NCBI GenBank assembly: GCA_964615185.1
Contig: CAZTOS010000001.1
Coordinates: forward strand, 1-26,378
Source: an uncultured Thermococci archaeon
GTDB lineage: Archaea > Methanobacteriota_B > Thermococci > Thermococcales > Thermococcaceae
Direction: 5' to 3'
DNA length: 26,378 nucleotides
In this document: positions 156 to 16,653 of the stretch, piece after piece
Layout: the number at the start of each line of letters is the position of its first letter
Numbering within the stretch: the first letter of the stretch is position 1
Translations under genes and position numbers: made by a program
The notes under the pieces: model-generated
What the model saw: the letters and a program-made list of their open reading frames with translations, nothing else
Told to the model about the DNA's origin: nothing
Database searches by the model: none

Positions 156-1307
156 CACAACTTCTTCAAAATGTTGAAAGCTCCAACTAAATCAGCGTTC
201 ATTACAACGCCCTCTCTGCGGCACTTAAACAAACCTCTAAAGATTCTACCATTCGAATGGCGTTGGCCGCAGAGAGGGCAGGTCTGAGAAGTGAAAGCCT
301 CATCAACAAGCAGGACTCGAATACCATACTCTTCCGCAACCTCAGTTAAACGTTTTATTACAGTGTTAAAACACCAAACGTGAGAAAGAATGAAGTTTTG
401 CTTTTTACCCTTATTAGGTTCTCTTGCAATTTCTTTAGGATACCCAACGACAATTCTGCTAACGCCCAACTGATAGAGCCTTTCAACAGTCCGCCTCACT
501 GCAGTGTTGATGTAGTGTTTTGCTTGGAGTTTAGCCTTTTCATGCATTCTCTTTAATTTCCTACTCTTTCTACAACCCGACTTGTTGAGTTTAGACTGGT
601 ATCCCGCTATCTTTTTCTGCCAGTAGAATGCAATGCTCTTTAGTGGCCTACCATTCACGAGGAGACTCTCACCATTCTCGACATAAACAGCCATTAAATT
701 GTTCACTCCCAAGTCAATACCAGCCGTGAGGTTTCCTTTCGGCTGTCTTGGAACTTTAACCCAACCATTTTTGGATAGTCTCTCTTCAACATTAAAACTA
801 ATGTGAGCATACCATTTCCGCTTTACATCGTCGTAAATAATTTCAAGCCTCCCCTGCTTGCCCTTCAAATGTATTCTGCCCTCGACTTAGCCTGCCGAAT
901 TTTCCAAGACGCTTCAACTCGATTACGTTGCCGTCAATTCTGTACTGGTCGTTCCTAAGCGGAATGATGAAGAGCTTTCTCCCATTCTCCTCCTTGACGA
1001 ATTTTGGTGGTTTTGGCTTGAACCAGGTGGGCAGTTTTTTCTTCCTGTTCAGGGAGAAGAATGAACGCCAGGCTTCAGCGTTCTTTCTAGCCAGTTGTTG
1101 GACTGTCGAGCCACCAACCCAGTCTTTTAAGGCGTAGTATGCTTCTTTTTCCGTGGTGGCAAAGTCCACTACTCCAAACTTTTTAAACTGCTTCAGCCTC
1201 TCGTAGTTGATTTTGTTCCAGATTGTGGCTGTGGCTTGGGCTAGTTCGAAGAGGGTTTTCTCTTGGGCTTTTGAGGGCTGGAGTTTGACTGTTGCAGAAC
1301 GCTTCAT
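21..1307 (-). pseudogene. tnpB: RNA-guided endonuclease TnpB, two frameshifts (~885 and ~160)
   Basis: ORFs 843-1307 and 155-868 join as ...FGRL/EGRIHLKGKQGRLEI. Motifs: RuvC-I GIDLG, VDEAFTSQTCPLC zinc finger, RuvC-III NADLVGAFNIL. Adding 1 nt at ~160 extends the frame (KKVVRTITPSL..GRGNRGKTLPEGL..MARG*) to TAA at 21-23. Confidence 0.9.
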
Positions 1308-1459
1308 TTCTTTTCCCGTTCGATTTTTTCAATCCAGAGTTTCATGGCCTCAGTTACCGCAACTCCCAGTGCCCCCCTAATCCGCCCATATTTCCCCACC
1401 ACGAGCTCCCTAAACCTTTTCTCAACTCTATCGTCAACGGAGACAGTTATTACTCCCAT
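1304..1459 (-). CDS. 51-aa ribbon-helix-helix (CopG/Arc-like) DNA-binding protein, not in the ORF track
   Basis: MGVITVSVDDRVEKRFRELVVGKYGRIRGALGVAVTEAMKLWIEKIEREKK*: alternating beta strand followed by two helices. RBS GGTGGGAG. Its TGA overlaps the tnpB ATG (ATGA). Confidence 0.85.
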   Translation of the reverse strand: MGVITVSVDDRVEKRFRELVVGKYGRIRGALGVAVTEAMKLWIEKIEREKK

Positions 1460-1470
1460 GCTCCCACCAT

Positions 1471-1506
1471 TAAGTATTAGTACAGCTTAGTATTTAAACC
1501 TTTCTC
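1471..1506 (-). promoter_or_regulatory. BRE/TATA promoter of the RHH-tnpB operon with three TACT(A/T)A direct repeats (candidate RHH operator)
   Basis: Minus strand GAGAAAGG-TTTAAATA, with TACTAA (1492-1487, overlapping the TATA end), TACTAA (1482-1477) and TACTTA (1476-1471). Confidence 0.55.
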
Positions 1507-1582
1507 TTGCTTTCCTGCTCAAAAACCAAATTTTCGAACACTGCACCCCACCCTAAAGGGCAAGGCTTGAAAAAAGAAAAGT

Positions 1583-1615
1583 CACCTCCATGAAGTAGCC
1601 GACACCAGTGTATGG
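1583..1615 (-). pseudogene. Remnant second copy of the extreme C-terminus of the large zincin protein (PYTGVGYFMEV)
   Basis: Translates PYTGVGYFMEV versus PYTGVGYYLRV near the end of ORF 2222-3337. Six of the 7 identical residues use different synonymous codons. Confidence 0.7.
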
Positions 1616-1628
1616 GCTATTGAAATAT

Positions 1629-2225
1629 CTATCTGCCTTTCATTCTTGTTAGTAGGGGAACCAATGCTAATCCAATTAACAGCGTTGGCCCGCAGATTGT
1701 CTTGTTACCCTCGTTTGGTGTGTATTTTCGAGGGGAGTGGAATTGGGAATAGCATGAGAGGTTCTTTGGTCCGTAGCAGTCAAACTCACTGTAAATTCCA
1801 TCATCCATGAATACTGTTACACCAATGTCAAAATTTGTAATTTCAAGAGTCCATTTCTTGATAGGAGCGTTATTGTATATCTTGATGTATTCATAGTATT
1901 TCTCCAGAAATGCATCTATATCCCAGTCTGAAATCCTAAAGGGGCTGATGTTCTTTGTAGGAATCATTCTTTTGGTTGTTCTATTTTTTGTGTACTCTAC
2001 AAGGATATCATGAGTTTTGTTGTACGGATATATTATCCTCACCTTCATAATGCTTGAATCATTGAACGGATTAGTTGGGATATTTGGGCCAGTTCCATCA
2101 ATGAGGATATACTTAATGCTTTGATTTTCTTCTAGCACGTCCCATAGACTAACTGCCTTTAGGAGGTGAATAGCTGGAGTTAATACCAAGGAAAAAAGAA
2201 AAATTGTTATGAACAATCTTTTCAT
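1629..2225 (-). CDS. CGP-CTERM sorting-domain cell-surface protein
   Basis: N-terminal signal peptide MKRLFITIFLFSLVL. C-terminal KTICGPTLLIGLALVPLLTRMKGR fits the Thermococcales CGP-CTERM pattern. ATGA overlap with the upstream gene. Confidence 0.85.
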   Translation of the reverse strand: MKRLFITIFLFSLVLTPAIHLLKAVSLWDVLEENQSIKYILIDGTGPNIPTNPFNDSSIMKVRIIYPYNKTHDILVEYTKNRTTKRMIPTKNISPFRISDWDIDAFLEKYYEYIKIYNNAPIKKWTLEITNFDIGVTVFMDDGIYSEFDCYGPKNLSCYSQFHSPRKYTPNEGNKTICGPTLLIGLALVPLLTRMKGR

Positions 2226-3337
2226 TGTGATCCCTCCTGATATAGAACTCTTAGATAATATCCAACTCCAGTATACGGTCCAGTTCTGGGTATATAATCA
2301 AAAGGCAACCTCTCATCTCTTGTATTATTGAAATCCAGATCAAGTTCTAAGCCCGCATTGATATTTTGTACCCCATTGAAGGACACAAGATAGTCTTTTG
2401 AGAGGATGTCAAATACCATTTCCCATGCTGAAGTATGTGTCACCCCCTGGCTGTTTATTTGGAATTTAATCTCCCAGTGTGCCGTTGTAAAGTTTTCCCA
2501 TGAGTTTACATCCCACCCATAGTCGGTGTATATTTGGATTAGCGTGTTCTGCAGTTCATACAATTGTTGATTGAACCATTGGTAATTGTGGGGAATACTT
2601 AATTCACTGAATTTTTCTGCTTTGTTCATGATAGTAGGCAACTGTATAAAGTTGATGTCCCTCTTGGAGAGCTCTGCTGTCATGTTATCATAACTAATAC
2701 ACTCCCATTCACGAGATTCTATGATATACCTGCATGTATGGGTTATGTACTCATCCCCTATACCAAAAACAAAGTGTCCGAGCTCGTGGGCTATTCCCCG
2801 ATAGTACTCGTCTGGGGTTTTATCTCCGAACTCCCTGAAGAGCAGGACATATCCACCCTCCTTGCCTGGAAGGTTCTTCACCCACTTCCAGTACCAGAAA
2901 CCGTGGTAAGTTAACAGAGTATCATTAGACTCGGGTTTAACTCTCACCATATAGCTCTCCCACTCTTCACTGCCTACCTGCACGTTGTTCTTTATGCTGA
3001 TCTCCGTTATCATCGCATACCCATCCGTGTAATCGTAAACCACCTGACTCGCCCTCTGGAAGCCCTTAATGAGCTGAGTAAGGTAAGTCTGGTTGGCATT
3101 AAATCCGACGGCAACCGTCAGTTTTATTCCGAGAACATCTGGCTTTGCAGGATCCTTCCCAATAAACAGCTCTACACTGTTTGGAACTCCATCACCGTCG
3201 TAATCTCCGTACATGTCATTCTCCTTTGGATTGAACCTTTCACTGTAGCCTCTCTCCTCAAGCTCTTTGTTAAGCTCTAACTCTTTGTAGAATGGTATTC
3301 CATCCCCATCAGCATCGTTCAGCTTGATGAGGAACAT
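2222..3337 (-). CDS. C-terminal part of the large surface protein: DxDxDG Ca-binding repeats plus zincin metalloprotease domain
   Basis: DADGDGIP and DYDGDGVPNSVE repeats. HELGHFVFGIGDEY at 2788-2747. No signal peptide. One added G at 3334/3335 joins it to the upstream ORF. Confidence 0.75.
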   Translation of the reverse strand: MFLIKLNDADGDGIPFYKELELNKELEERGYSERFNPKENDMYGDYDGDGVPNSVELFIGKDPAKPDVLGIKLTVAVGFNANQTYLTQLIKGFQRASQVVYDYTDGYAMITEISIKNNVQVGSEEWESYMVRVKPESNDTLLTYHGFWYWKWVKNLPGKEGGYVLLFREFGDKTPDEYYRGIAHELGHFVFGIGDEYITHTCRYIIESREWECISYDNMTAELSKRDINFIQLPTIMNKAEKFSELSIPHNYQWFNQQLYELQNTLIQIYTDYGWDVNSWENFTTAHWEIKFQINSQGVTHTSAWEMVFDILSKDYLVSFNGVQNINAGLELDLDFNNTRDERLPFDYIPRTGPYTGVGYYLRVLYQEGSQ

Positions 3338-6174
3338 ATCTCGGCGTCATCTTCATCACTATCTTCTGAGGTCGCTAGGGCATCAAAGGTTAACGCAGTA
3401 GGAGTGCTTTCAGTTTCACTGTCGCTTAAAGCTTGGATTTCTCGCTCCTTTGCATCCTCATTCTGTTCCTTGAAGACAAAGACTGCTTCATATCTTACAC
3501 GTTTTCTTGCTGTTGCATTTTGTTTAACTGTAATATTTCCATTACTCGCTTCACTATCCGTGGACAGTACTTTAACATCTTCACTTGGAAGGTTCTGCAC
3601 CTGAACTTTAGCGTTTCTCTTGTTGATTACTAAGACCTTCCTCTCAGTTCCGTTTGGCAAAGCTAGGGTGAATAAAACTGCCTCTTCAGGCTTGGAATAC
3701 TGATAGAGCTTCCCTTTTTGATAATCTTTGACCTCTACACTCTCAATTCCATCCCATCCCCTAGCATCTGTGATGTTAACAATGCTTAAATCATAACCCA
3801 TGGCTTCAAGCTCATCGTAGTACTTGACGAATGGTTCAATGTCAGTGCTTGAGTCTAAATCACCACAGGAACCATCACCGCAACCGCTCAGATGACCATA
3901 GCCAAAGTAGACTCTGTGATCATTTGGATAATCATGGAAGCCCCACGTACCACTCTTTACAGAGAACATAACTTTAGCCATCTTGTCTTCCTCATCTGTC
4001 CCGCTTTCTGGAGATATATCGAGCATATCCCAAGACGACAGAGTATCTCTGTCAAAGAGCTTGAAGTAAATCCATATAAACTCAAAGTACTCTGGGATAT
4101 CAACTGTAAACTTGGCTATCTGCTGAAGCTCCATATTTACAAGCGTGTCGTTAGTTAGTATTATTGATTTCTCAGCATCATCCTGATTATCTGATATTGT
4201 AAAACTCTGCCATACAATGTTACCATGTCCGAGATTAGCTTCAATCTCCAAGGTCATGTCAGCTTTCTGATAATCAGCGGAAAGCCATTCATCAACTGGA
4301 TCGAGAACTCTTGCACGAAAGACATACACCGTTAATGTTAAGTTCCTTGTTAGTGGGTCCACATCTTTTGAATCTTTTATACCATCCCCATCAGTGTCCC
4401 ATTTATATGGGTCTGTCTTGTACTTTTCTATTTCTTCAATATCACACCAGCCATCAAAGTCAGTGTCCAGTTTAACAAGAACAGTCCTCTCTTCGGGTGT
4501 CCCAACGTTACCCCTCTCATCCACTGGGACAAACATAAATCTAAGCTCCTCGGTACAGTTGTTTATCACTGGATAATAATAGTAGCTTGCAGTTTCTTCA
4601 GAGGCAATTGGACCTATTGTGAACTTATACTCATCATTAACGTAGACTCTGACATATACCTCATCACTCTCCTCGTCGTACACCGTTACTGTCCCATCAA
4701 ATCTATACCCGGAATATGCTTCTTCAGGAATTGTTATGTTAGTTATTTTTGGAGGTAAGTTAGGTTTCACGTAGATTGTCTTCTTCCATGTATCTCTGAG
4801 TTCACTATCTTCCCAGAGCTCAATAGTGACATTGTGAGTTCCAGGTGTAGGATCCTTCCAAATTAGATAGAATTGATAACTTTGCTCAGGCAATACATAT
4901 CCCGAAAAGCTCCATTTTTGTTCATTATCAACTAACAGCTTTAGGGTAACATCCACTTTTTCAGAGGCAGGATTATTGACTAAAACATCAAATTTAATAT
5001 CCCTACCTTCAATAACTGGGGAAGGATAATTTACACTGGTTATGCTCACAGTGGGTACAGAAATCCAAGTAATTTCCGTTGACTCTTTCCCTCCTGAATA
5101 AGAAGGAATAAACTTTGCAACTACAACATGGGTGCCAGGCTCTGCAGTCCATGCATCATAGAAGCGGAAATACTTGATTGAGTATTTTTCCACATAAACA
5201 CTCTCACTTTTGAGTATCTCTCCATCTATAACAAGCTGAAGGGTTCCAGCGCCTCCCAATGCTCCTCTGTTATCAAGCTTTATTGTGAAATCTACTGGAG
5301 TTCCGGGAGAAGGTTTGCTTGGATAGTAATAGATATCCTCTACAGTTATCTCAGGAGAAGATGAATAATGGTATGTGCTAATAACGTTTCCCAGTGAATC
5401 AACTAAATACACAGTGTCTCCATCATTATTAAGGATAGCATCCTCCGGGCTTGAAGCAACTTTTACAATATATGTTCCAAATGGGGCAATTGTGCCATAA
5501 ACCCTGATTATGTGTTCTCTACCATAATATTCACATGAGTCTTTTGGTGTTCCATCATAGTTCCAACATTCGTTATTATTGTAGGCAAAGCTATCCATTA
5601 TGTACCAACCTGGAATATTCGCTGAGGAACTACTTGGATTGTAAAGGATTACATACTCGCCATTTCCATCATTTGTTAGATAATCGATGTCCTTTATCAC
5701 AACGCTGTAAGGTATTGATAAAGGAACAACTTGTAAATCCTTAGAAAGTTCTTTAATCTCGGAATCTGTAATATTGCCGTCTGTTTTTAACCTTTCTATA
5801 GTATGAAGAGCTTTTTCTGGATTTTTCCATTCATAATACCTGATTTTTATCGGGTTAGTGTTATTAAGATACCACAACTCAAACTTTAAGCCCTCACTAG
5901 TCCTTGTAATGTTTGTAATTTTCATGTTTTCTGAAACTACTATTGTTCCATTAATCATTTCCTTAATCATCAGTTCAAGTGCACTGAGAAGAACTTCTCT
6001 GTCTTCATATGTCAAGTTTTCTAATAACTCTAAGAGAGGAGCAAAAAAGGGATTTACTGTTTCGTCTCCTTGTACTTCGCTCTGATCTTTCTCCTGTTGT
6101 ATATCCGCCTGTGACAATGTGGAAGATATTAGTAAAACTAAGAGCAGCATTACTATAATAGATTTTCTCCTCAT
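3319..6174 (-). CDS. N-terminal part of a large secreted protein (signal peptide, lamin-tail-like domain, CARDB/Ig-like domains, Ca-binding repeats); probably frameshifted
   Basis: RBS GGAGGTG before ATG 6174. Signal MRRKSIIVMLLLVLLISS. LTD-like EYVILYN..GWYIMD..LNNDGDTVYL. CARDB-like beta repeats. DTDFDGWCD/DTDGDGIKD repeats. Confidence 0.8.
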   Translation of the reverse strand: MRRKSIIVMLLLVLLISSTLSQADIQQEKDQSEVQGDETVNPFFAPLLELLENLTYEDREVLLSALELMIKEMINGTIVVSENMKITNITRTSEGLKFELWYLNNTNPIKIRYYEWKNPEKALHTIERLKTDGNITDSEIKELSKDLQVVPLSIPYSVVIKDIDYLTNDGNGEYVILYNPSSSSANIPGWYIMDSFAYNNNECWNYDGTPKDSCEYYGREHIIRVYGTIAPFGTYIVKVASSPEDAILNNDGDTVYLVDSLGNVISTYHYSSSPEITVEDIYYYPSKPSPGTPVDFTIKLDNRGALGGAGTLQLVIDGEILKSESVYVEKYSIKYFRFYDAWTAEPGTHVVVAKFIPSYSGGKESTEITWISVPTVSITSVNYPSPVIEGRDIKFDVLVNNPASEKVDVTLKLLVDNEQKWSFSGYVLPEQSYQFYLIWKDPTPGTHNVTIELWEDSELRDTWKKTIYVKPNLPPKITNITIPEEAYSGYRFDGTVTVYDEESDEVYVRVYVNDEYKFTIGPIASEETASYYYYPVINNCTEELRFMFVPVDERGNVGTPEERTVLVKLDTDFDGWCDIEEIEKYKTDPYKWDTDGDGIKDSKDVDPLTRNLTLTVYVFRARVLDPVDEWLSADYQKADMTLEIEANLGHGNIVWQSFTISDNQDDAEKSIILTNDTLVNMELQQIAKFTVDIPEYFEFIWIYFKLFDRDTLSSWDMLDISPESGTDEEDKMAKVMFSVKSGTWGFHDYPNDHRVYFGYGHLSGCGDGSCGDLDSSTDIEPFVKYYDELEAMGYDLSIVNITDARGWDGIESVEVKDYQKGKLYQYSKPEEAVLFTLALPNGTERKVLVINKRNAKVQVQNLPSEDVKVLSTDSEASNGNITVKQNATARKRVRYEAVFVFKEQNEDAKEREIQALSDSETESTPTALTFDALATSEDSDEDDAEICSSSS

Positions 6175-6346
6175 GTACACACCTCCAACTTAAGTTTATA
6201 TAAACTATCTTGAATAGTTAGTTTTTAAAATTTATAATTTTTATTCTGCCATTATAAGTGGTACATAAAGGAACAAGAATAGAAAAATTAGGGCAAACTA
6301 ATAGTTTCTAGGATATTTTTATAGTTTATGTTATGCAAAGTTAGAT

Positions 6347-7390
6347 TTAAATCAACTCTCTCTCCATCTTTGTGAGCCTCTTAGCTCCATCTTTCGTTAT
6401 AACAACTGTATCCTCAATCCTGACGCCACCAAGCTTTGGAATGTAAATTCCTGGCTCAATCGTTATGACAATTCCTTCCCTGAGGACAGTCTCATCGTAC
6501 TGGCTTATTCTCGGAGGCTCATGAATTTCCAACCCAACCCCGTGACCGAGGCTGTGGATGAAGTAATCTCCATAGCCATATTCCGCTATGATGTCCCTTG
6601 CTATGCTGTCGAGTTCTTTCGCAGTCATTCCTGGCTTAGCTTTTTCAACAGCTGTCTTTTGAGCCTCAAGAACTATCTCATAAATCTCCTTCTGCTTCTC
6701 ATTGGGTTTTCCAATAACTATGGTTCTTGTTATGTCAGAATTGTAGTGCCTGTAAAGTGCTCCTAAATCTATGACAACTAAATCTCCTCTCTCAATCCTC
6801 TTATCGCTTGCAACTCCATGGGGGAGAGCTGACCTGTGACCGCTGGCAATGATTGTATCAAAGGCTGGCTTTTCAGCACCGTTCATCTTCATAACATACT
6901 CAACCTTTGCTGCTATTTCCCTTTCTCTCTTCCCTTCACTGATTTCTTCAATAGCCGCCATAACAGCCATGTCAGCCAATTCACACGCACTTTTGATTAT
7001 CTCGATTTCTTCTTTGGTTTTTACGATTCTAAGGTCTTTTATAACATCATCAATACTCCTAAATTCCTTTATCTCAGCTTTTTCTTTAAGTGCATTCATG
7101 AAGGAAAAGCTTGTTGAACCTTCAATTCCCAAAACACTATAAGGTTTGAGCTTTTCATAAAGTTCTGGCAGTTTCTTGAACTTTTCAACTGGTAGTTCAG
7201 TTTCTTCCCTTGTTGCCTCATATTCAAGTTCAGGAACGTAAATTATAGCCCCATCGGGAGTAACAACTAAATATCCCCCAGCTAACGGAGAAGCTCCAGA
7301 AAAGTAGAACAGGTTTTCACGTTTAGAGATGAGCGCTGCATCAATTGAGTTCTCGTTTATAAACTTTTGAAGCTTCTTTATTCTTTCCAT
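6347..7390 (-). CDS. pepQ: Xaa-Pro dipeptidase (prolidase, M24B)
   Basis: DLG..YNSDITRT, HSLGHGVGLEIHE, TIEPGIY and GVRIED metal motifs. RBS GGTGGTGATC favours ATG 7390 over the 7471 track start. Confidence 0.95.
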   Translation of the reverse strand: MERIKKLQKFINENSIDAALISKRENLFYFSGASPLAGGYLVVTPDGAIIYVPELEYEATREETELPVEKFKKLPELYEKLKPYSVLGIEGSTSFSFMNALKEKAEIKEFRSIDDVIKDLRIVKTKEEIEIIKSACELADMAVMAAIEEISEGKREREIAAKVEYVMKMNGAEKPAFDTIIASGHRSALPHGVASDKRIERGDLVVIDLGALYRHYNSDITRTIVIGKPNEKQKEIYEIVLEAQKTAVEKAKPGMTAKELDSIARDIIAEYGYGDYFIHSLGHGVGLEIHEPPRISQYDETVLREGIVITIEPGIYIPKLGGVRIEDTVVITKDGAKRLTKMERELI

Positions 7391-7514
7391 TTTCATGATC
7401 ACCACCAAAGCTGAATAGCTGAGGGAGGATAAAACTGTTTCTATTACCTGGTGCATTTTCATCAAGATCAATAAATTTAAAAGCTCTCTTCAATAGGCAT
7501 TAACGGTGAGAGCG

Positions 7515-7772
7515 ATGAAGGGGATAGTGTTAAGCTACATGAGGAGTAAGGAAAATCAGCACAACCACCACATGATTATCAAGCCTCTTGGAATTGAGAG
7601 CAGAGAAGAGGCAGCAAAGCTCATAGGAAAGAAAGTCATTTGGAAGAGCCCGAGCGGAAAAATCATTGCTGGCAAAATTATCAAGCCACATGGAGTTAGG
7701 GGCGAAGTTAAAGTAAGGTTTGAAAAAGGTTTACCCGGACAAGCTCTTGGGGATTACATCGAAATTCTCTGA
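7515..7772 (+). CDS. rpl35ae: 50S ribosomal protein L35Ae (eL33)
   Basis: [47 protein letters not shown] before ATG 7515. Confidence 0.95.
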
Positions 7773-7820
7773 TTTCTTTTCTTCCTAACCTAAGCTTTTT
7801 GTAAATAAATTGGTGGTACC

Positions 7821-8960
7821 ATGGAGCTGATAGAAATAAGTGAAGGAAAAGCAAGGGTTCTTGTTCCAAAAGCTGAACGTATTTATGATGCTCCAGTTTT
7901 TTACAACCCCATGATGGCTCTGAATAGGGATTTGAGCATCCTTCTCCTTAAGGTTGTTAAAGCGAAGAGAGTTTTAGATGCTCTAAGTGCTACAGGGATC
8001 AGGGGAATTAGGTATGCTTTAGAGACACCAGCAACTGAAGTTTGGATGAACGACATAAATCCAGATGCCTTTGAGCTGATAATTAAAAATCTGAGGCTCA
8101 ACTTCTCCGGTAAAATTGAGATACATGAGAAGAAAGCAATTTTAAAAGGGAACAAGGTTTTAGTTGCAACAAACTTAGATGTCAACAGATTAATGAATGA
8201 GCAGTTTAGGTATTTTGACTTCATTGATTTAGACCCCTTTGGTTCTCCAATGGAGTTCTTAGACTCTGCCTTGAGGAGTGTAAAGCGAAAAGGAGTTTTG
8301 GCAATCACTGCAACAGATACAGCACCCCTCTGCGGAGCTCATCCAAGGGCATGTCTAAGAAAATACAACACAGTGCCAATAAGGGGCGAGCTCTGCCATG
8401 AAGCTGGGCTGAGGATTTTAATAGGAACCGTTGCGAGATATGTTGCAAAGTATGATATGGGCTTTGAAGTTCTTTTTGCGTATTACAAAGACCATTACTT
8501 TAGGGCCTTCTTAAGGTTTAAAGGTGGAGCAAAGAAAGGAAATGAAACTTTAGAAAAGCTCGGTTATCTGTATTTTGATGAAAATAACGGAAAGTTTGAG
8601 ATTGAGAGAAGCTTTTTACCGAGTAAACCTAAAGCTTATGGACCTTTGTGGCTTGGGGAGCTTAAGAATCAAGAAATTGTTGAAGAGATGCATAAGCTAT
8701 TGGAGAAAGAAGAGATTGCAGAGAAAAAGAAAGTGCTGAAGTTTTTAGGAATAATCAAAGAGGAGCTTGACGTTCCATTTTTCTACGACACTCATGCATT
8801 AGCGAGGAGAAACAATCTTGAGGTTAGGAAAATTGCCAAAATCATCGAGATTCTTGAAAAAGAGGGCTACAAAGCAACGAGAACTCACTTCTCACCAACG
8901 GCTCTAAAGACAAATGCTCCTTTTGAGGAAGTGCTTGAGGCTTTAGAATCATTACAGTAA
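7821..8960 (+). CDS. trm1: tRNA (guanine(26)-N2)-dimethyltransferase Trm1
   Basis: [45 protein letters not shown] motifs. Confidence 0.96.
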
Positions 8961-9002
8961 CCTTAATTAAACCCTTTTGTTCAGCTTTTTAAGGGATGAA
9001 AG

Positions 9003-10097
9003 ATGAATGAGATGGTAAAGTCTGCTCTTCAATTCTACAGAGATGAATATTCAGACTCAGTTCTTTATGCTCAGCTTGCTAAGATTGAGAAAGACGAGGC
9101 TTTAAAGAATGAATTTCTAAGGCTTTCAAACATTGAGGCAAAGCATGCAAAGTTCTGGCACGATTTCTTGGCAAGGAGAGGCGTTAAAATATCTAAAGCA
9201 AAGGTTAGCAAGTTCTCGCTCTACAGCACAAGACTCCTAAGGAAAATTTTAGGGCCTGGTGCTGTTGCTTCGCTCCTTGAGATGGGAGAAAACAGTGCAA
9301 TCCAAAAGTACTTCAAATTCCTCACAACATATCAAGAGAAGCTCGATGAGGAAGAGAGAAGAGAGTTAAGTGAAGTCATCTTAGACGAGCTTGAACATGA
9401 GAAGTTCTTCTACGAGAGCAAGCAGAGGTTCCATGTTGAAAACATCCGAGATTTGGTTCTCGGTATGAATGATGGATTAGTTGAGATTCTTGGTGCAGTC
9501 ACTGGATTGTCAGCGGTTTACGTTTACAACCCAAAGCTTGTCGGAATTAGCGGTCTCATCGTTGGAGTTGCCGGGGCTTTATCAATGGCAATTGGGACTT
9601 TCATATCAGTCCGCTCTCAGAGACAAGTAAACGAGAGCATTAGACAAAGAATGGAAGTCCTGTTCAGGGTTTCCCCGGATAGAGCGAAAGATGAACTTTT
9701 AGACAAGCTCCTAGAAAGCGGAATGCCTGAGGAAGTTGCAAAAGAGGTTGCTGAGAAGCTTTCCTCAAATCACGATGCAATAATTAAGTTGCTCGTTCAA
9801 GAAGAGGACGAGAATGAGGTGAGGGCAGCACTATACACCGGAATTTCCTACCTCATTGGTGTAGCATTTCCAGTTACACCTTATTTCTTTGCGTCTTCAT
9901 CTCTAATTGCCCTGCCTTTCTCGGTGCTACTGGCTGGAACAGCACTGGGGGTAGTTGCGACTTTTATATCGGTACTCTCAGGAATCTCAATAAAGAAGAA
10001 AGTCACGGAGATGGTCACCACAGGATTAGGAGCCGCATTTGTTAGCTATCTCTTCGGAAGACTTATGGAGGCTCTATTCCACGTTTCAACACTCTAA
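9003..10097 (+). CDS. Rubrerythrin/ferritin-like domain fused to a VIT1/CCC1 transporter (MbfA-like)
   Basis: Two ExxH di-iron motifs (EAKH, ELEH), then IRDLVLGMNDGLVE and GALSMAIG VIT1 motifs and TM helices. Confidence 0.88.
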   Translation: MNEMVKSALQFYRDEYSDSVLYAQLAKIEKDEALKNEFLRLSNIEAKHAKFWHDFLARRGVKISKAKVSKFSLYSTRLLRKILGPGAVASLLEMGENSAIQKYFKFLTTYQEKLDEEERRELSEVILDELEHEKFFYESKQRFHVENIRDLVLGMNDGLVEILGAVTGLSAVYVYNPKLVGISGLIVGVAGALSMAIGTFISVRSQRQVNESIRQRMEVLFRVSPDRAKDELLDKLLESGMPEEVAKEVAEKLSSNHDAIIKLLVQEEDENEVRAALYTGISYLIGVAFPVTPYFFASSSLIALPFSVLLAGTALGVVATFISVLSGISIKKKVTEMVTTGLGAAFVSYLFGRLMEALFHVSTL

Positions 10098-10501
10098 AGG
10101 TAGAACACCACAATGCCAAGCTTTTCTGCAACTTTTCCCTGTTTTTCATCGCTGGTTGCTAACTTTCCATATTTGAGAGCCTGAGCGATGTAAAGAGAAT
10201 CATAAACGGTAACGTTATTCTCAAGGGCAATTTCTTCCGCCTTAGGCAAGTATTCAATCGGATTCTCATATATGATTATGCCTTTAGTTGAGTGAAGATA
10301 ACCAAGCAATTTCTCTGCCGTTTTGAGAGGAATATCTTGGTGAAGAACACAGCGCTTCCAAATCGCATTTGCGCCTTCAATCAATGCCATTTCTAAGGAA
10401 ACCAACTGATTCTGACGGAGGAACTTCGAAACGTCACGCCAGCCCTCTTCGCGAAGGAGGTATTTGATTAAAGACGAGGTGTCAATTACTATCACGGGCA
10501 T
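10094..10501 (-). CDS. vapC: PIN-domain toxin VapC
   Basis: VIDTSSL..E..NAIWK..VYDSLYIAQA..LATSD PIN acidic residues. Overlaps the antitoxin gene. Confidence 0.92.
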   Translation of the reverse strand: MPVIVIDTSSLIKYLLREEGWRDVSKFLRQNQLVSLEMALIEGANAIWKRCVLHQDIPLKTAEKLLGYLHSTKGIIIYENPIEYLPKAEEIALENNVTVYDSLYIAQALKYGKLATSDEKQGKVAEKLGIVVFYL

Positions 10502-10706
10502 CCCTCACAAGCTTCACTGCTTGTCCCTTTTTCATGGGAGGAACTTCCTTTTCGAGAAAAGCATCTATCTCATCAAGCAACTTTCTTTTTTCCTGCTCCC
10601 GTATTTTCATCTCAATAAACCTCCGTATCTCTTCGCTCCAGTTTATATTAACCTCCTTCATTTTCGCTTTAAGCTCATCGGGGATACGAATGCTGACAAC
10701 AGCCAT
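10482..10706 (-). CDS. vapB: RHH antitoxin VapB
   Basis: MAVVSIRIPDELKAKM..INWSEEIRRFI. RBS GGTGATG before ATG 10706. Lies upstream of vapC. Confidence 0.88.
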   Translation of the reverse strand: MAVVSIRIPDELKAKMKEVNINWSEEIRRFIEMKIREQEKRKLLDEIDAFLEKEVPPMKKGQAVKLVRDARDSN

Positions 10707-10715
10707 AACATCACC

Positions 10716-10745
10716 GTATATATAGGCGTCATACATACTTATAAA
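10716..10745 (-). promoter_or_regulatory. vapBC TATA box and inverted-repeat operator
   Basis: Minus-strand TTTATAA (10745-10739) directly followed by GTATGTAT-N7-ATATATAC (7/8 inverted repeat). Confidence 0.6.
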
Positions 10746-10752
10746 CATTGTG

Positions 10753-12117
10753 TCATACTTTTATGTACTTCCACTTCCCCCTCTTAAACACCCACCAGAA
10801 AAAGCCAGCGGTTGTGAATGTCTCAAGGCTCATTGCAATCCAAGCGGCAATAACTCCAAGCCCCTCAAAGCGGAATGAACCTATTGCAAATCCAAATCCC
10901 AAAAGATAGGCTGGGAGAATTCTAAAGAGCAATTTGCTAACAGCTGTTATATACATCGGACTTTTTGTATCTCCTGCACCTCTTAAAGCTCCGCTGAGAA
11001 CAAAAAGCCAGCCTAATGGAATTTCACTTATACCCACAATCATGAGATAGATTGCAGCCAAGTGAATAACTTGCCAATAATTGGGGTCGCTTTTTGTTAT
11101 GAAAGGTATGACAAGGTATTTTGGAAAAGCAATCAAAACCACAGCCATGACGCTCATGAAAGCCGTTACCATTTTCAGTGATTCATATACAACCTTCTCA
11201 GCTTTTTCTGGGTTTCCTTCACCTAAGCTCTGTCCAACCAAAGCTGATGTGGCAACATTAAAGCCAAAAGCTGGCATATAGGCTATGCTTTCAACCCTTA
11301 AGCCAACCTGATGAGCAGCTAAAGCTACTGTACCAAATCTTGTAACGATGCTTATGTAAATGAAGTTGTAAACGCTGAAGATTATTCTCTCAATCGTTGC
11401 TGGAATTCCAATTCTGAGGATTCTTTTAACCAGTGAAATATCAAATCTAAAGCTGGGTTTAAACTTCAAAACAAGCTTGTCACTTAAGAAGAGGAACATG
11501 CCAATAATAAACGCCGCTACAATTGAAAGTCCAGAAGCTAATGCAGCTCCCTTGACTTCTAATCTTGGAAAACCAAATTTTCCAAAAATTAAGAGATAGT
11601 TTAAAATAACATTCAGCACATTCATCAAAAGGCTTAACTTCATTGGCGTTTTTGTGTCACCAGCACCTCTTAAAGCTGAAAAAGCCGCAAAACCCATGAA
11701 GTTAATGGGATAAAATAAGAAGTATACCCTGATGTATTCGTAGCCCAGTCTAATTACGTCCTCACCAGCACCCATTACTCTAAGTGCATCATCCCCAAAG
11801 AATAAGCCAATTAACATAACAGGTATCCCAACAAGAAAGGCAAGATAAATCCCCTGCTCCAAAGTTTGATTTGCCATTTCGTAATCTTTAGCACCAACAA
11901 AACGAGCAACCAATGCTAAAACTCCAGTTGAGACTGCAAACATTATTGGCATCATGAACCATGAAAGCTGAGCTCCTAATCCCACGCTGGCAATCGCGAG
12001 AGCACCAAGCTGTCCGACCATTATCATGTCAACTAAGTTAACAAGGGTTTGAGAGATGTTTGCCAATATTGCCGGCCATGCAAGCTCCCATAACTTCTTC
12101 CTTAATTCGCCATCCAT
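10753..12117 (-). CDS. MATE family efflux transporter
   Basis: About 12 TMs, two LRGAGDTK(T/S)PM repeats, D in TM1 (LVDMIMVG). Start 12117 chosen from the GTGA RBS. Confidence 0.95.
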   Translation of the reverse strand: MDGELRKKLWELAWPAILANISQTLVNLVDMIMVGQLGALAIASVGLGAQLSWFMMPIMFAVSTGVLALVARFVGAKDYEMANQTLEQGIYLAFLVGIPVMLIGLFFGDDALRVMGAGEDVIRLGYEYIRVYFLFYPINFMGFAAFSALRGAGDTKTPMKLSLLMNVLNVILNYLLIFGKFGFPRLEVKGAALASGLSIVAAFIIGMFLFLSDKLVLKFKPSFRFDISLVKRILRIGIPATIERIIFSVYNFIYISIVTRFGTVALAAHQVGLRVESIAYMPAFGFNVATSALVGQSLGEGNPEKAEKVVYESLKMVTAFMSVMAVVLIAFPKYLVIPFITKSDPNYWQVIHLAAIYLMIVGISEIPLGWLFVLSGALRGAGDTKSPMYITAVSKLLFRILPAYLLGFGFAIGSFRFEGLGVIAAWIAMSLETFTTAGFFWWVFKRGKWKYIKV

Positions 12118-12163
12118 AGTAATCACTTAGATGAATGTCTAAGCGATAAAAGAGAAATAGAAG

Positions 12164-13168
12164 TTAAAAATCTTGCGATAAGAAGAGCTTTTCAAGATTG
12201 AATACTTTGAGACCAAATCGATTTAGCATTTCTTCAACTTGCTTTTTTGTAAGTCTGTAATCATAGACAAATCCTCCGAAGCTTTCCCTTACAAGTTTCT
12301 CCTCAAATCCCATAACCTCAACCATAAGCTCTATAGCTTGCCCTTTTCGTTTCTCCAGGTTTTCAGTATTCTCTTTGAATTTCTCTAAAAATTCATAGAA
12401 CAGGTTTTTGTTGAGATCCAAAAAGCTCAAATTAACTCCCAAAGCGCAGCAGGGATATTTCCCAAAATAATCAGAGTAATGGTAGACATTGAAGCCCTTC
12501 TTTTTAAGCAGACTTAGATACGGCTCCCAGATGCTTATCCCATCTATCTCTCCTCTAAGGAAAGACTCCACAGCATTTTCTGGATTTTTAAAGTATGTCA
12601 CTTTTATATTCTTCAATCCCTTTTTCTCAAGGAACAACTTTAGCATGGTTTCCATTGTAGAAAGCTCAGAAGAGGCAATGGTTTTTCCTTCCTTGAGCTC
12701 TCCTCTCACAACGAGTCCGCTACCAGAAAATCCACATCCAGAAACAACTTTAATGCTTTTCATCAACAATGCATAAAGGATTTGAGTAATTAACGGCGAG
12801 CACGCTAAATCAACCTTTCCTATTGCAAGAGCATTCGTAAGCTCAAGGGCTGAGTTGTAAACCAAAACTCTAACATTGTACTTTTCTTTTAAATCATGAG
12901 CCGCCAAAAGGGCATGAGGATATTCAACAGCCCTTAAAAGTCCGAGTCTAAGAGTGTTTTTAATGGGAAAGGGCGCCTCATCAATAATCCATATTCTGTA
13001 TGCTTTTTTCCCAATGTTTCTTTTTACAATAAGGTTCTCTTCTTCAAGACTTTCTAAGGCCTCAGCAATTGTCGAACGGGAATACCCCAACTCATACAGC
13101 TCACTTTGCAAAGCACCATCATGCCCCTTTGACTTTAAATAGCGCAAAATGTCATCTTTTGCACTCAT
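12164..13168 (-). CDS. Winged-HTH domain fused to an SsuA/NMT1-type substrate-binding domain
   Basis: N-terminal LQSELYELGYSRSTIAEALESLEEENLIVK wHTH. C-terminal GEIDGISIWEPY and YPCCAL typical of class II SBPs. No signal peptide. Confidence 0.75.
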   Translation of the reverse strand: MSAKDDILRYLKSKGHDGALQSELYELGYSRSTIAEALESLEEENLIVKRNIGKKAYRIWIIDEAPFPIKNTLRLGLLRAVEYPHALLAAHDLKEKYNVRVLVYNSALELTNALAIGKVDLACSPLITQILYALLMKSIKVVSGCGFSGSGLVVRGELKEGKTIASSELSTMETMLKLFLEKKGLKNIKVTYFKNPENAVESFLRGEIDGISIWEPYLSLLKKKGFNVYHYSDYFGKYPCCALGVNLSFLDLNKNLFYEFLEKFKENTENLEKRKGQAIELMVEVMGFEEKLVRESFGGFVYDYRLTKKQVEEMLNRFGLKVFNLEKLFLSQDF

Positions 13169-13249
13169 AGTTTAGAATTCAAAGCAAGGATTTATAGAGT
13201 TATCCCCCACACAGTTAACTTAGTACAGAAAAGCAAAATAAAAAAGAAA

Positions 13250-13438
13250 TCAATGGACGTTCTTAGCTTTCTTCCACTTCTTTGACCAGCTGTACTTCCT
13301 CAACCTTCTGCTCTTTCCAAAGCCACAGGCAGCACAGTAGCCCTTTCTAACATTGTAGGCTTTCTTCCCACATCTTCTGCACTTTATGTGAGTAGGAGTC
13401 CTATTTCTCTTTCCATGGGGCGCTGTTCCGCTTCCCAC
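13250..13438 (-). CDS. rpl37e: 50S ribosomal protein L37e (eL37)
   Basis: [18 protein letters not shown] zinc ribbon. Follows the Sm gene. Confidence 0.97.
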
Positions 13439-13449
13439 CGAGAATCACC

Positions 13450-13680
13450 TCACTCAGTTTCTACTGGTGAAATAGCCAACACATTGTCTCCTCTAATTAC
13501 AATCTTACCATACTTCTTTGTTACCTCGCCGCCCTCAATAAGCTGAGCATCTGCAAGGACAACATTCAGGTGAATGTCATAACCGATAAGCTTGCCTCTA
13601 AACTCGAATCCTTTCTTAAGTATAACCAACACATCCTTGTCCAGGGACCTGTGTATAACATCAAGTGGTCTTTCCGCCAT
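13450..13680 (-). CDS. Archaeal Sm/Lsm protein (SmAP1)
   Basis: Sm1 motif GKLIGYDIHLNVVL and Sm2 motif IVIRGDNV. Conserved Sm-L37e pair. Confidence 0.97.
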   Translation of the reverse strand: MAERPLDVIHRSLDKDVLVILKKGFEFRGKLIGYDIHLNVVLADAQLIEGGEVTKKYGKIVIRGDNVLAISPVETE

Positions 13681-13861
13681 TTCTCTTCCCTCCTAAATAA
13701 TCAAAGCTAAAGCTCACATTCATAACGGAAAAATTGGTTTATAACTCTTTCGTATCACAGCCCTAAAATGTTCTATTAGGCACCAACTTTGATAAAACAT
13801 CAAAGGATATTCCACAAAGTTTTTAGGATTTTGAAGTATCACACCTTAAGGTGGTGAAGGC

Positions 13862-15574
13862 ATGAAGATAGACAAGTATGAAATCCTTTCAGATTTGATG
13901 AGAAGAAGGGGCTTTGCATGGGGGAGCTTTGAAATTTATGGTGGAGCGAGAGGTTTTTACGATTACGGTCCTCTTGGAGCAACGATAAAGAGAAAGATTG
14001 AGCGTAAAATCAGAGAAGCCTTTCAGAGAGAGGGCTTTTTTGAGCTTGAAACCCCGGACATAACTCCTGAGGAAGTCTTCATAGCTTCAGGTCACGTTGA
14101 GAAGTTCGTTGATCCCTTAGTTGAGTGTACCAAGTGCCACGCAAGATACAGAGCAGACCATCTCATCGAGGAGAACTTGGACATTGATGTTGAAGGCTTG
14201 AGCGCTGAAGAGCTCACTAAGATAATAAGAGAAAATGGTATAAAATGCCCTCAGTGTGGCGGAGAGCTAAGCGATGTGTGGTATTTTAACTTGATGTTCG
14301 AGACGTATATCGGCCCTTACAAGGATAAGAAAGGGTATTTAAGGCCGGAAACTGCCCAAGGTATTTTTGTGAACTTTAAGAGGCTCAACGCATTTGCAAG
14401 AAACAAGCTCCCATTCGGCGTGTTCCAGATTGGAAAAGCATACAGAAATGAAATTTCACCAAGGCAAGGGATGATTAGACTTAGAGAGTTCACCCAGGCT
14501 GAGGTTGAAATATTCTTCAACCCAAAAGAGACCGAGCATCCACACTTTGATGAAGTCAAAGACGAGGTTGTAAGGCTCTACCCCATTGAACACCAGCTTA
14601 AGAACTTGGGGATGATTGAGATAACTCTTGAAGAAGCTGTTAAGAAAGGCTATGTCATGAACACATTTTTTGCCTACTACATGGCTATGGTGAAAGGAAT
14701 CCTTCTCGACATAGGCATTCCAGAAAAGGCAATACGATTTAGACAACAACTCCCGGAGGAAAGGGCACATTATTCAAGCGACACATGGGACGTTGAAATT
14801 TACAGCGAAAGATTTGGATGGATTGAGTGTGTTGGTATTGCATACAGAGGAGATTACGACTTGAGCAGACACATGAAGATGAGTGGTGCTGATTTGACAG
14901 TCATGATTCATTATGATGAGCCGAAGATTGTGAAAAAGCTTAAAGTAAGCCTAAATATGAAAAGAGTTGGTCCAAAGCTTAAGAAAGACGCAAAAAGAAT
15001 AAACGAGAAGCTCAAAGAAATGAGCGAAGAGGAACTCAAAAAACTTGTCAAGAGCTTAGAAGTAACTGGAAAGGCCATAATTGATGGGTATGAGCTTGAG
15101 AGGGAGGACTTTATAATCAAAGAAGTTGAAGAAAAGATAACAGGTGAAAAAATTGTCCCTCACGTCTTAGAGCCAAGTTTTGGTATTGACAGACCATTCT
15201 ATCTCCTCCTTGAGAACTCACTGACGATTGATGAGGACGGAAGAATTTACCTTAAGATAAAGAAGGACATGGCTCCAATAGAGGTCGCCGTTCTGCCATT
15301 AGTTGCAAAGGAGCCACTAATAACGATAGCCTACAACGTCTTTAGAACATTGCAAAAAGCTGGGTTCATAGCAGTTTATGATGAAAAAGATACAATTGGG
15401 AGGAGATATGCGAGATACGACGAAATTGGAACTCCATACTGTGTGACCATTGACAATCAAACACCGGAAGACAACACCGTAACAATCAGAGACAGAGATA
15501 CGAGGGAGCAGATTAGGGTCAAGATCGGCGAATTACCAGAGAAGCTGAAGGAGCTCATCTTTGGCTCCTCTTGA
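13862..15574 (+). CDS. glyS: Glycine--tRNA ligase (alpha2 type)
   Basis: LRPETAQGIF, YRNEISPRQGMIRLREFTQAE, EPSFGIDR, IGRRYARYDEIGTP. Confidence 0.98.
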   Translation: MKIDKYEILSDLMRRRGFAWGSFEIYGGARGFYDYGPLGATIKRKIERKIREAFQREGFFELETPDITPEEVFIASGHVEKFVDPLVECTKCHARYRADHLIEENLDIDVEGLSAEELTKIIRENGIKCPQCGGELSDVWYFNLMFETYIGPYKDKKGYLRPETAQGIFVNFKRLNAFARNKLPFGVFQIGKAYRNEISPRQGMIRLREFTQAEVEIFFNPKETEHPHFDEVKDEVVRLYPIEHQLKNLGMIEITLEEAVKKGYVMNTFFAYYMAMVKGILLDIGIPEKAIRFRQQLPEERAHYSSDTWDVEIYSERFGWIECVGIAYRGDYDLSRHMKMSGADLTVMIHYDEPKIVKKLKVSLNMKRVGPKLKKDAKRINEKLKEMSEEELKKLVKSLEVTGKAIIDGYELEREDFIIKEVEEKITGEKIVPHVLEPSFGIDRPFYLLLENSLTIDEDGRIYLKIKKDMAPIEVAVLPLVAKEPLITIAYNVFRTLQKAGFIAVYDEKDTIGRRYARYDEIGTPYCVTIDNQTPEDNTVTIRDRDTREQIRVKIGELPEKLKELIFGSS

Positions 15575-15575
15575 C

Positions 15576-15977
15576 TTTTCTTTTTCAAGCCTCGCCCTTT
15601 AGGCTGGGGGCACAGAACACCGCCCAATCAGTCTTTAAGCATCGAAACCCTTTTAACCTCTTGCAACGTAATAGGGCTTCGGAGAGGCCACCAAAGAGCA
15701 ACCCAATGAGACGAGGGGTTTCATCCGTGTCCCTCCCGTTGGGAGGGATAACGCTGTTAAGTATCCTTTCAAGACTGCTCACTCTGGCAGTCAAAAACTC
15801 CAATGGGTGGCCTTTGAGCGATAACCCCAATCCGCTCTGCGGTAGGGGTAACGGGCCGAAGACCCGGCCTGCGGGCTGAACCAAAACCGGCAACGGGAGT
15901 AGGAGATGATTGCCCGCAAACCTCCCCGTCATTAGCGAGGGAGTTAAGCCAAACCCTCGCAAAGGGGAGGAGGTCAG
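15576..15977 (+). mobile_element. 402-bp non-autonomous IS200/IS605 derivative lacking tnpA and tnpB
   Basis: Left end TGAC|TTTTCTTTTTCAAG-CCTCGCCC-TTTA-GGCTGGGG matches the element at 1584-1546. The 3' half is homologous to 1-155. Ends GGGGAGGAGGTCAG|. Confidence 0.88.
15643..15656 (+). promoter_or_regulatory. Internal BRE/TATA promoter of the mini-element RNA
   Basis: CGAAA-CCC-TTTTAA about 20 nt upstream of the first base-paired segment (15676). Confidence 0.55.
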
Positions 15978-15995
15978 TTTTCTCCAAATTATTCT
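15675..15995 (+). ncRNA. Stand-alone TnpB omegaRNA: extra 5' domain (15676-15819), scaffold (15820-15977), guide (from 15978)
   Basis: Stems: GGCCACC/GGTGGCC, ATGAGAC/GTTTCAT, TCCCTCCC/GGGAGGGA, GACTGC/GCAGTC, ACCCC/GGGGT, GGGCCG/CGGCCT, GCGGGC/GCCCGC, CCTCCCC/GGGGAGG, GCGAGGG/CCCTCGC. Ends are inferred. Confidence 0.72.
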
Positions 15996-16058
15996 TGCCA
16001 CAGTGAAAAGGACAACACCACTCAAGAAGCCAGAGAGATAAATTAATCCTGCATCCAT
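15978..16058 (-). CDS. Small single-pass membrane peptide gene interrupted by the mini-element (33 aa at the empty site; reads through to 157 aa here)
   Basis: RBS GGTGAG and TATA palindrome at 16107-16120. MDAGLIYLSGFLSGVVLFTVARIIWRK ends on a codon boundary at the element junction. The empty site adds VKRSQR*. Confidence 0.55.
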
Positions 16059-16140
16059 CTTTACTCACCATGCTTTATTAGGCTTCAATACTTCTGTGCA
16101 TGGCTGAGGTTTTTAAACCTAAAATGCTACATAAAATTAT

Positions 16141-16653
16141 ATGAACCAAAAGATCCACCTCATCTACAAGCGCATTCCAAACAGAGTCCTTGAAAGATAC
16201 GATGAACTCATAGCGAACTTAGGAGACATCATCGTTGCCAAATCCAGATTTTATGGAATGCTAACGCCTCTTTACGTAAATGGAGTTAAAGTAATTGAAA
16301 ACGGCTACACAATGATATACTTCGCCTTTATCGGCAGAAATTATGATGTTTTGAAAGTTTATGATGAGGAAGGGAATTTTAAAGGGTTCTACGTAGATGT
16401 TCTGGCATATACAAAGCGCTACAACAATACCTTAGAGATGCTCGACCTATTTTTAGACATATTCATCTTCCCAAACGGCGAAGCTTTCTTGTTAGATGAA
16501 GACGAGCTTGAAATGGCTCTCAATTATGGTCTAATCGACAAAGAGACCTTTGATTTCGCCTACAAAGTTGCAGATGAAATAATGAACGCTGTGAAGGAAA
16601 AGATGTTTCCTCCAAAAATCGTTTGGGAATATGGTATGGAGGGAAGAGAATGA
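16141..16653 (+). CDS. DUF402 family protein
   Basis: YDEEGNFKGFYVDV..MLDLFLDIFIFPNG..LLDEDELEMAL..GLID pattern. Probably leaderless (TATA about 24 nt upstream). Confidence 0.85.
   Translation: MNQKIHLIYKRIPNRVLERYDELIANLGDIIVAKSRFYGMLTPLYVNGVKVIENGYTMIYFAFIGRNYDVLKVYDEEGNFKGFYVDVLAYTKRYNNTLEMLDLFLDIFIFPNGEAFLLDEDELEMALNYGLIDKETFDFAYKVADEIMNAVKEKMFPPKIVWEYGMEGRE

Follow-up and report, generated by a model that had tools for sequence, protein, structure and literature searches.

The window considered here is the whole 26,378-nucleotide (nt) stretch of contig CAZTOS010000001.1 (assembly GCA_964615185.1), from an uncultured Thermococci archaeon of the family Thermococcaceae. Positions 15576-15977 are a non-autonomous, tnpB-less IS200/IS605 miniature element of the IS1341/TnpB type, comparable to palindrome-associated transposable elements (PATEs) and to MITEs, the miniature transposable elements with inverted repeats. 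Its parts follow in the order left-end hairpin, promoter with a transcription factor B recognition element and TATA box (BRE/TATA), 5' domain, omegaRNA-like scaffold with the right end, and then genomic flank. The 5' domain, about 135 nt at 15683-15815, is structured and conserved, with covariation in its support, and, judging from alignments, occupies the position held by the tnpB body in full-length relatives. An earlier sequence-only reading of this DNA was accurate in seeing an extra RNA domain in place of the tnpB gene. Protein-less IS200/IS605 derivatives bearing an omegaRNA are known; what sets this one apart is the conserved 5' RNA domain, no account of which was found in the literature searched. 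Its parts are as follows.

15683-15815, plus strand: 5' structured domain of five helices, ~135 nt, defined by its fold and by alignments of copies
15683-15692 with 15806-15815, plus strand: P1, the closing helix, AGAGGCCACC/GGTGGCCTTT, 89-94% of cells pair, and C-G to U-A switches compensate
15700-15704 with 15716-15720, plus strand: H1, AACCC/GGGTT (AACYC/GRGTT in the family), 94% paired
15705-15715, plus strand: H1 loop, family consensus GAUGAGAUGAG, from a loop census of 77 copies
15730-15736 with 15742-15748, plus strand: H2, TCCCTCC/GGAGGGA, 92-98% paired, with 4-6 pairs changing on both sides
15750-15755 with 15760-15765, plus strand: H2b, GACGCY-loop-RGCGTC, 98-99% paired in the family
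15773-15778 with 15787-15792, plus strand: H3, GACTGC/GCAGTC, 89-90% paired

The plus strand of 15676-15819 gave a fold of -57.5 kcal/mol (z -3.42, matched by 2 of 200 shuffles), a multibranch structure in which a closing helix surrounds the hairpins, and the minus strand of the same interval folded less well (z -1.94, 7 of 200 shuffles). Within a fold of 15640-16010 the domain formed a unit of its own (z -3.93, 0 of 100 shuffles). Covariation was assessed in two alignments. The first (A1) was a MAFFT alignment, fitted to no structure, of 35 copies, seven from the element's own genome (the window copy included) and 28 from related genomes; the second (A2) held 77 copies (75 distinct) from 77 sources, aligned by a covariance model, R1. 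A six-helix structure was drawn from the window copy and scored on A1. Of its 1278 cells, 90.6% were paired, and 65 showed double changes, compared to 32 +/- 4.2 after shuffling (0 of 500 shuffles reached this value); moving the pairing partners by 1-3 columns reduced pairing to 33-51%. In the RNAalifold structure of A1, the closing helix and three hairpins are complete and H1 is partial. In A2, 93.2% of 2507 cells were paired (38-50% in the slid controls), 21 of the 34 pairs changed on both sides, and 241 double-change cells were counted against 82 +/- 10.5, with none of 500 shuffles exceeding any of five measures; the significance of these A2 values is overstated because the alignment is model-fitted and because kinship among the copies inflates the shuffle controls. 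A1, being free of structure fitting, points the same way. Over 72 copies, the majority frequency within the domain was 0.84 in paired columns and 0.75 in unpaired columns, and 0.52-0.61 in the adjacent spacers.

These results bear out the conserved multibranch module of the sequence-only reading, the structure being kept in both the 35 and the 77 copies, and they revise its details. The core of the closing helix stands as drawn, but its outer GCTT/GAGC pairs (15676-15679/15816-15819) do not: 65.7% of 140 cells were paired there, one pair was C.A in 31 of 35 copies, and these bases lie upstream of the transcription start predicted at ~15681. The hairpins proposed at 15730-15748 and 15773-15792 agree with H2 and H3. 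The remaining one, ATGAGAC/GTTTCAT, was paired in 86% of 200 cells without compensatory change, and it is AACCC/GGGTT that is kept where the 5' arm is absent. The domain has four hairpins and not three; H2b had been missed because the window copy carries two mismatches in it, and a C-G/U-A switch in this helix was found in 13 of 35 copies in A1 and 28 of 75 in A2. Between H3 and the 3' strand of P1 lie 12-16 unpaired nt. A further helix, GAG/CTC (15696-15698/15798-15800), was dropped from the model with 54.5% of its cells paired. As a lead read by eye, the tandem GA motifs of the H1 loop are reminiscent of a kink-loop (K-loop): the consensus fits stem-NNN-GA...GA-stem bar one extra G, and roughly one in four of the listed loop variants does not have it. 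A kink-turn (K-turn) at the closing helix found no support, as no consistent GA flanks P1 in the alignment.

The other parts of the element and its site are the following.

15572-15575, plus strand: TGAC, target or transposon-adjacent motif, immediately 5' of the element and overlapping the stop codon of the upstream synthetase gene
15576-15977, plus strand: whole element, 402 bp, without tnpB, absent from a second haplotype (contig C27) and repeated in its own genome and in relatives
15576-15611, plus strand: left end with subterminal hairpin, CCTCGCCC at 15590-15597, loop TTTA, and GGCTGGGGG at 15602-15610
15643-15657, plus strand: BRE/TATA-like promoter, CGAAA at 15643-15647 and CTTTTAAC at 15650-15657
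15820-15977, plus strand: omegaRNA-like scaffold up to the right end (...GGAGGAGGTCAG), homologous to the tnpB 3' coding tail and right end
15824-15828/15845-15849, 15832-15835/15839-15842, 15853-15858/15865-15870, 15872-15876/15912-15916 and a 3' domain at 15919-15975, plus strand: scaffold helices, from predicted pairs
15978-15997, plus strand: presumed guide, assumed to be ~20 nt, where read-through past the right end would enter the flank

The boundary between domain and scaffold was placed by comparison with tnpB elements. In an alignment with seven tnpB 3' regions, homology began at GATAACCCC (15820) and ran through the right end, which agrees with the earlier placement of the domain end at the first scaffold base (15819/15820). 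Ten TnpB frames searched by tblastn against the copies matched the tail only (11-12 residues in the window copy, E 0.002-0.01), and neither this search nor the alignment found DNA or protein similarity to tnpB upstream of 15820; the absence of tnpB coding similarity noted previously is thereby confirmed, and a tnpB remnant upstream of this position was rejected. The last ~140 nt of the element match a tnpA+tnpB element (C16) and tnpB-only elements (C27, C42 and window 21-1581), as do its first 35-41 nt at the left ends of the same elements. The left-end hairpin common to related elements has the form CCTCGCCC-TTTA-GGGCGGGG (mean majority frequency 0.84 in 72 copies), of which the window copy is slightly degenerate. 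The element's own assembly contains ten matches to the TnpB zinc-ribbon (TNB) domain, with one TnpB frame holding both OrfB_IS605 and TNB domains, and a single Y1 transposase (tnpA) gene, at C16. On the minus strand, window 21-1581 is itself a tnpB-only IS200/IS605 element whose tnpB is spread over three open reading frames (ORFs; 843-1307, 155-868 and 21-158) and is probably frameshifted. A 51-amino-acid ORF (1304-1459) without a Pfam hit precedes this tnpB, and sequence like this region follows the left ends of the elements on C27, which carries the other haplotype of the region, and C61.

The scaffold is also supported by covariation, with compensatory changes in 18 of 36 predicted pairs; this test used 48 of 61 scaffolds, with two near-duplicates and eleven of the shorter sequences set aside. 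Domain and scaffold are closely linked. In five complete genomes, the scaffold variant of the window copy (15846-15935) had 42 matches, of which at least 39 lay directly 3' of a domain match. A few copies join the same domain to other scaffold variants that match other resident tnpB elements (for example C112, of the C83/C42 type, and C4:5585, of the C56 type). Candidate orphan scaffolds without the domain in the element's own genome are mostly at contig ends and hence uninformative. AUAAC at the junction (15821-15825) is nearly invariant in the 77 copies and is kept in full-length elements too. A possible scaffold pseudoknot is suggested by two complementary and nearly invariant motifs that show no covariation, GACC in the first scaffold hairpin's loop (15859-15864) and GGUC at the right end (15972-15975). 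We make no claim for a long-range pairing of the P1 3' strand UGGCCUUU (15808-15815) with the right-end GGAGGUCA (15969-15976), paired at 95% over 8 columns in 48 copies, because the sequence is purine/pyrimidine-rich and varies little; this match, next to the guide, may be an alternative pairing or mere low-complexity complementarity.

Upstream of the domain, the BRE/TATA box stands out in the 72 copies with a mean majority frequency of 0.87, against 0.61 in the spacer before it and 0.52 in the stretch after. A strict TATA pattern was present in 60 of 77 copies, and CTTAAATA in most of the remainder. Full-length elements have a BRE/TATA-like box ~85-90 nt from the left end, where the miniature has its conserved CGAAACCCTTTTAAAC box. 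With the spacing of 22-24 nt measured at related Pyrococcus loci (Phok 2011, PMC3124441), transcription would begin near G15681, 2 nt before the closing helix. A DNA palindrome, GGCYTC-GRA-GAGGCC (GGCCTCGAAGAGGCC; 15675-15689), spans this predicted start and was 94.8% paired in 35 copies, with two pairs changing on both sides. As its 3' arm is the 5' strand of the closing helix, the palindrome and the closing helix would be mutually exclusive if the RNA started further upstream.

The insertion itself can be read from contig C27 of the same assembly, a second haplotype of the region. C27:10841-26405 is 99.65% identical to window 21-15581 and, past the insertion point, runs straight into window 15978 onward at 89% identity. 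Its empty site reads ...CTTGAC followed by TTTTCTCCAAATT... (TGAC and then TTTTCTCC at the junction), which delimits the insertion as 15576-15977 and places it after TGAC. The element and the flank both start with TTTTCT, and therefore a target-site duplication need not be assumed. A T[TG]A[CT]-type motif (TTAC, TGAC or TTAT) occupied the equivalent position in 35 of 51 copies, TTAC in 26 of them, and motifs of this type were also seen 5' of copies in the element's own genome. A blastn search of the assembly with 15575-16000 returned 41 matches, and those on contigs C4, C6, C31, C112 and C3 include almost complete copies that are 68-86% identical. Filled and empty haplotypes within one assembly, together with the multiple copies, suggest that the element is or was mobile. 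The 33 nt at window 15978-16010 are the same, base for base, as those that come right after TGAC in the empty-site haplotype, and this flank would act as the guide by analogy with the TnpB literature.

Several other observations concern this site. An aminoacyl-tRNA synthetase gene (class II; 13862-15574; Pfam tRNA-synt_2b and HGTP_anticodon) lies upstream of the element and a DUF402 gene (16141-16653) downstream, and G+C content rises from ~34-45% around the locus to 50-64% across 15550-15950. Over the window 1-16531 region compared with C27, divergence between the haplotypes jumps at the element, from 99.65% identity over the 15.6 kb before it to 89% from the first base after it, which could mark a recombination boundary or a strain mixture. 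The empty haplotype has a small hydrophobic ORF (MDAGLIYLSGFLSGIVLFTVARIIWRKVKRSQR) convergent on the synthetase gene (window 15978-16050, minus strand); in the window, the insertion substitutes the last residues of this putative ORF after ...IIWRK, with the presumed guide lying antisense to the 3' end of the ORF.

Searches for known families did not account for the domain. At gathering score, Rfam 15 had no match anywhere in the window. With E up to 10 over 15400-16200, the HgcC model (RF00062) aligned to the scaffold at 15851-15990 with 15.7 bits (gathering score 50, not reached), and the only match to the 5' domain was a minus-strand Tymo_tRNA-like hit at chance level (16.5 bits, threshold 40), in agreement with the sequence-only reading, which called the module unrecognised. 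Among 20 related loci, miniature and full-length scaffolds matched HgcC with 31.2-41.1 bits (seven loci), below the gathering score, and sot0042 (RF02656) with 27-36 bits (gathering score 88); the 5' domain had no Rfam match in these loci at E up to 0.01. HgcC and sot0042 are families of TnpB-tail RNAs, and neither model covers the 5' domain. ARAGORN found no tRNA genes in 15400-16200, in line with the lack of tRNA likeness already remarked; the 12-16 unpaired nt between H3 and P1 also differ from a tRNA-like handle, in which the T-arm would adjoin the acceptor stem. Three overlapping ORFs (157, 102 and 100 amino acids) had no Pfam hit, and all 76 other copies carry a frameshifting indel (not a multiple of three) relative to the window copy; a coding role was rejected on these grounds. 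A long stop-free stretch on the minus strand is present in 17 of 77 copies. A pattern scan of viral contigs gave no match.

The domain is not a one-off. The sequence-only reading was right to describe an unrecognised module fused to an omegaRNA-like scaffold, but the module is part of a repeated mobile element found by model R1 in 52 of the 133 genomes of the class, all in Thermococcaceae. Apart from the element's own genome, these were 51 of 96 genomes of the family, with none among 36 genomes of five other families; BLAST with 15641-15830 matched 42 of 97 family genomes. Carrying genomes hold 1-20 copies (18-19 in the element's own genome), and numbers among close relatives range from 0 to 20. 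TnpB genes are present in 83 of the 97 family genomes and in 50 of the 52 domain-bearing genomes, and tnpA in 28 of the 97, of which 25 carry the domain; as kin are not independent, this co-occurrence is a description and not a test. A separate pattern scan of contigs gave 22 loci, 17 in metagenome-assembled genomes labelled Thermococci, Thermococcaceae or Thermococcus and five chance bacterial loci; as it missed complete genomes that the other searches had found, it was not used for the distribution.

Related systems have been described in part. PATEs often encode omegaRNAs that need TnpB in trans (Meers et al. 2023 preprint, PMC10055086). As characterized in the available text of that preprint, they share with the present element the absence of a protein, the retention of both left and right ends, TnpA acting in trans, and an omegaRNA used by TnpB from elsewhere; the present element differs in having a conserved promoter and a ~135-nt domain between left end and scaffold, and in its archaeal hyperthermophile host. 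In Pyrococcus abyssi, sRk48 and sRk52 (130 and 177-180 nt) belong to repeated intergenic Thermococcales RNAs resembling the 3' end of OrfB (TnpB), with a BRE/TATA 22 nt before the start, stems P0-P3 supported by covariation, and a K-loop bound by L7Ae (Phok 2011, PMC3124441). Compared by described architecture only, their stem order is comparable to that of the scaffold at 15820-15977; unlike the miniature element, they begin just before P0, without a 5' domain, in the account given there. The same source describes sRkB and sRkC, which are 211-343 nt long, promoter-driven and derived from repeats akin to an OrfB 3' end, with a 137-145-nt 5' fragment, processing at +149, L7Ae at two K-turns and a 3' part extending into the flank (PMC3124441). 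These were reported as P. abyssi-specific with five stems in ~216 nt, and their likeness to the domain is one of description only.

Sense-overlapping RNAs at tnpB 3' ends and a PATE-derived RNA have both been linked to HgcC in the portion of Gomes-Filho et al. 2015 (PMC4615843) that is available. IStrons, which combine a group I intron with TnpB and omegaRNA (Zedaveinyte et al. 2023 preprint, as summarized in its accessible text), are alike in placing a second structured RNA in one IS605-type transposon and transcript, whereas the element here has no intron signature, Rfam match or tnpB. No description of a 5' domain between promoter and scaffold was found in the literature searched, with most subscription journals and the bioRxiv supplements lying outside that search.

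The account we favour, with about even confidence, is that an omegaRNA made from the element's promoter acts in trans and that the 5' domain serves it in cis as a 5' leader, probably aiding its stability, folding or processing. The element, having retained two transposon ends, an internal archaeal promoter and an omegaRNA scaffold, would have an RNA domain substituting for the tnpB body. The BRE/TATA box would drive an RNA of ~300 nt from near 15681, whose first bases would pair with 15806-15815 and close a compact four-hairpin domain round a junction, with the scaffold directly 3' of it and then the flank as guide. TnpA and TnpB would be supplied in trans by resident full-length elements: TnpA would move the element, and TnpB loaded with the element's RNA would cut the vacated site, TGAC or TTAC plus flank, with recombination then restoring the copy. 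For the window copy, this vacated site would be the C27 haplotype with its identical 33-nt flank. The leader would stand in for the body of the tnpB mRNA by burying the 5' end in a helix and by preventing wrong pairing between scaffold and upstream sequence in the heat, may recruit a protein such as L7Ae, and might either stay attached or be trimmed near the invariant AUAAC. More tentatively, and with clearly less confidence, the domain may represent an undescribed RNA family and the adaptation of a "parasite of a parasite," in which a protein-less element would carry its own promoter and a dedicated leader, letting its guide RNA be produced, last near boiling and reach the TnpB of other elements. 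The leader would then be required for guide biogenesis or for loading in trans, possibly via L7Ae or processing at AUAAC.

Several observations weigh against a leader function. The orphan RNAs of P. abyssi, in the published description available to us, start just before the scaffold without such a domain (PMC3124441), so a leader is no general requirement. The window copy has a degenerate left-end hairpin and the two mismatches in H2b. Across the helices, G-U/U-G cells exceed A-C/C-A cells modestly (58 versus 39), and covariation cannot tell RNA from single-stranded DNA because the transposed top strand has the RNA's sequence. Finally, four copies in the element's own genome (C6:21113-21252, C38:18210-18350, C2:79696-79838 and C106:1285-1430) keep the domain without a BRE/TATA; in this sub-family hardly any sequence separates the left-end hairpin from the domain, and of the scaffold the last 65-95 nt are left, a pattern that suits a promoter-independent or DNA-level role no less well.

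We therefore take most seriously, while considering it unlikely, the alternative that the hairpins act in single-stranded DNA, where, on the transposed top strand, they would compact the ~300 nt between the ends and so allow TnpA to bring left and right end together at the replication fork. Covariation and tolerance of G-T pairs fit this role equally, the promoter-less variants retain the domain, and the palindrome over the predicted start, with its two pairs changing on both sides, would have a place in it. However, transposition of IS200/IS605 elements needs only subterminal hairpins and cleavage motifs, as far as the accessible text of the Meers preprint (PMC10055086) goes. For a DNA role it would also be coincidence that the closing helix begins 2 nt after the predicted start and that the domain ends exactly at the scaffold, and the linkage between the domain and a single scaffold variant is tight.

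A second alternative, which we regard as doubtful, is that the domain is a cargo small RNA released from the transcript that acts in trans and without TnpB, for example as a regulator or in a particle with L7Ae. The domain folds as a closed unit of ~135 nt with an H1 loop that looks K-loop-like by eye, and OrfB-related loci of P. abyssi yield stable 137-145-nt 5' fragments that bind L7Ae (PMC3124441), although kinship with the domain is compared by description only. Against it, a search of the element's own genome for antisense targets found nothing convincing (best 16 nt, E 0.057), the domain is found almost only fused to the scaffold inside a mobile element, and its copy number of 0-20 among close relatives is unlike that of a host function.

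Less probable again is that the domain is functionless, a captured hitch-hiking sequence whose conservation comes from recent spread. All copies derive from one element family, so that relatedness inflates the shuffle controls, and some helices are broken, for example H2b in the window copy and helix 1 in C6:21113 and C2:79696. Yet copies only 68-86% identical keep 93% of helix cells paired with compensatory change in 21 of 34 pairs, and the adjacent spacers have decayed while the domain has not.

The least probable is a self-cleaving or nuclease-recruiting processing module, cut at ~15816-15822 to define the 5' end of the omegaRNA: Rfam 15 gave no ribozyme family match even at E up to 10, ARAGORN found no tRNA-like gene, and TnpB itself is reported to trim its omegaRNA, which would make a ribozyme unnecessary. 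The nearly invariant AUAAC junction, kept in full-length elements, the multi-helix junction with conserved unpaired bases, and the processing of P. abyssi sRkC 149 nt downstream of its start (PMC3124441) are the points in its favour.

TnpB guide RNAs are normally cut from the nuclease's own mRNA; the present element is a widespread natural case without the nuclease gene, and a promoter and a conserved folded domain stand instead. In dozens of genomes, domain and guide scaffold have stayed together. If a single-stranded DNA role is true, it would be a new requirement in IS200/IS605 transposition, and the RNA and DNA readings are both testable in cultivable Thermococcales. If the domain, as a 5' leader, does aid the making, lasting or loading of guides in trans, it would be a natural heat-stable leader for guide-RNA expression and would show that non-coding hitch-hikers exploit RNA-guided transposon maintenance.

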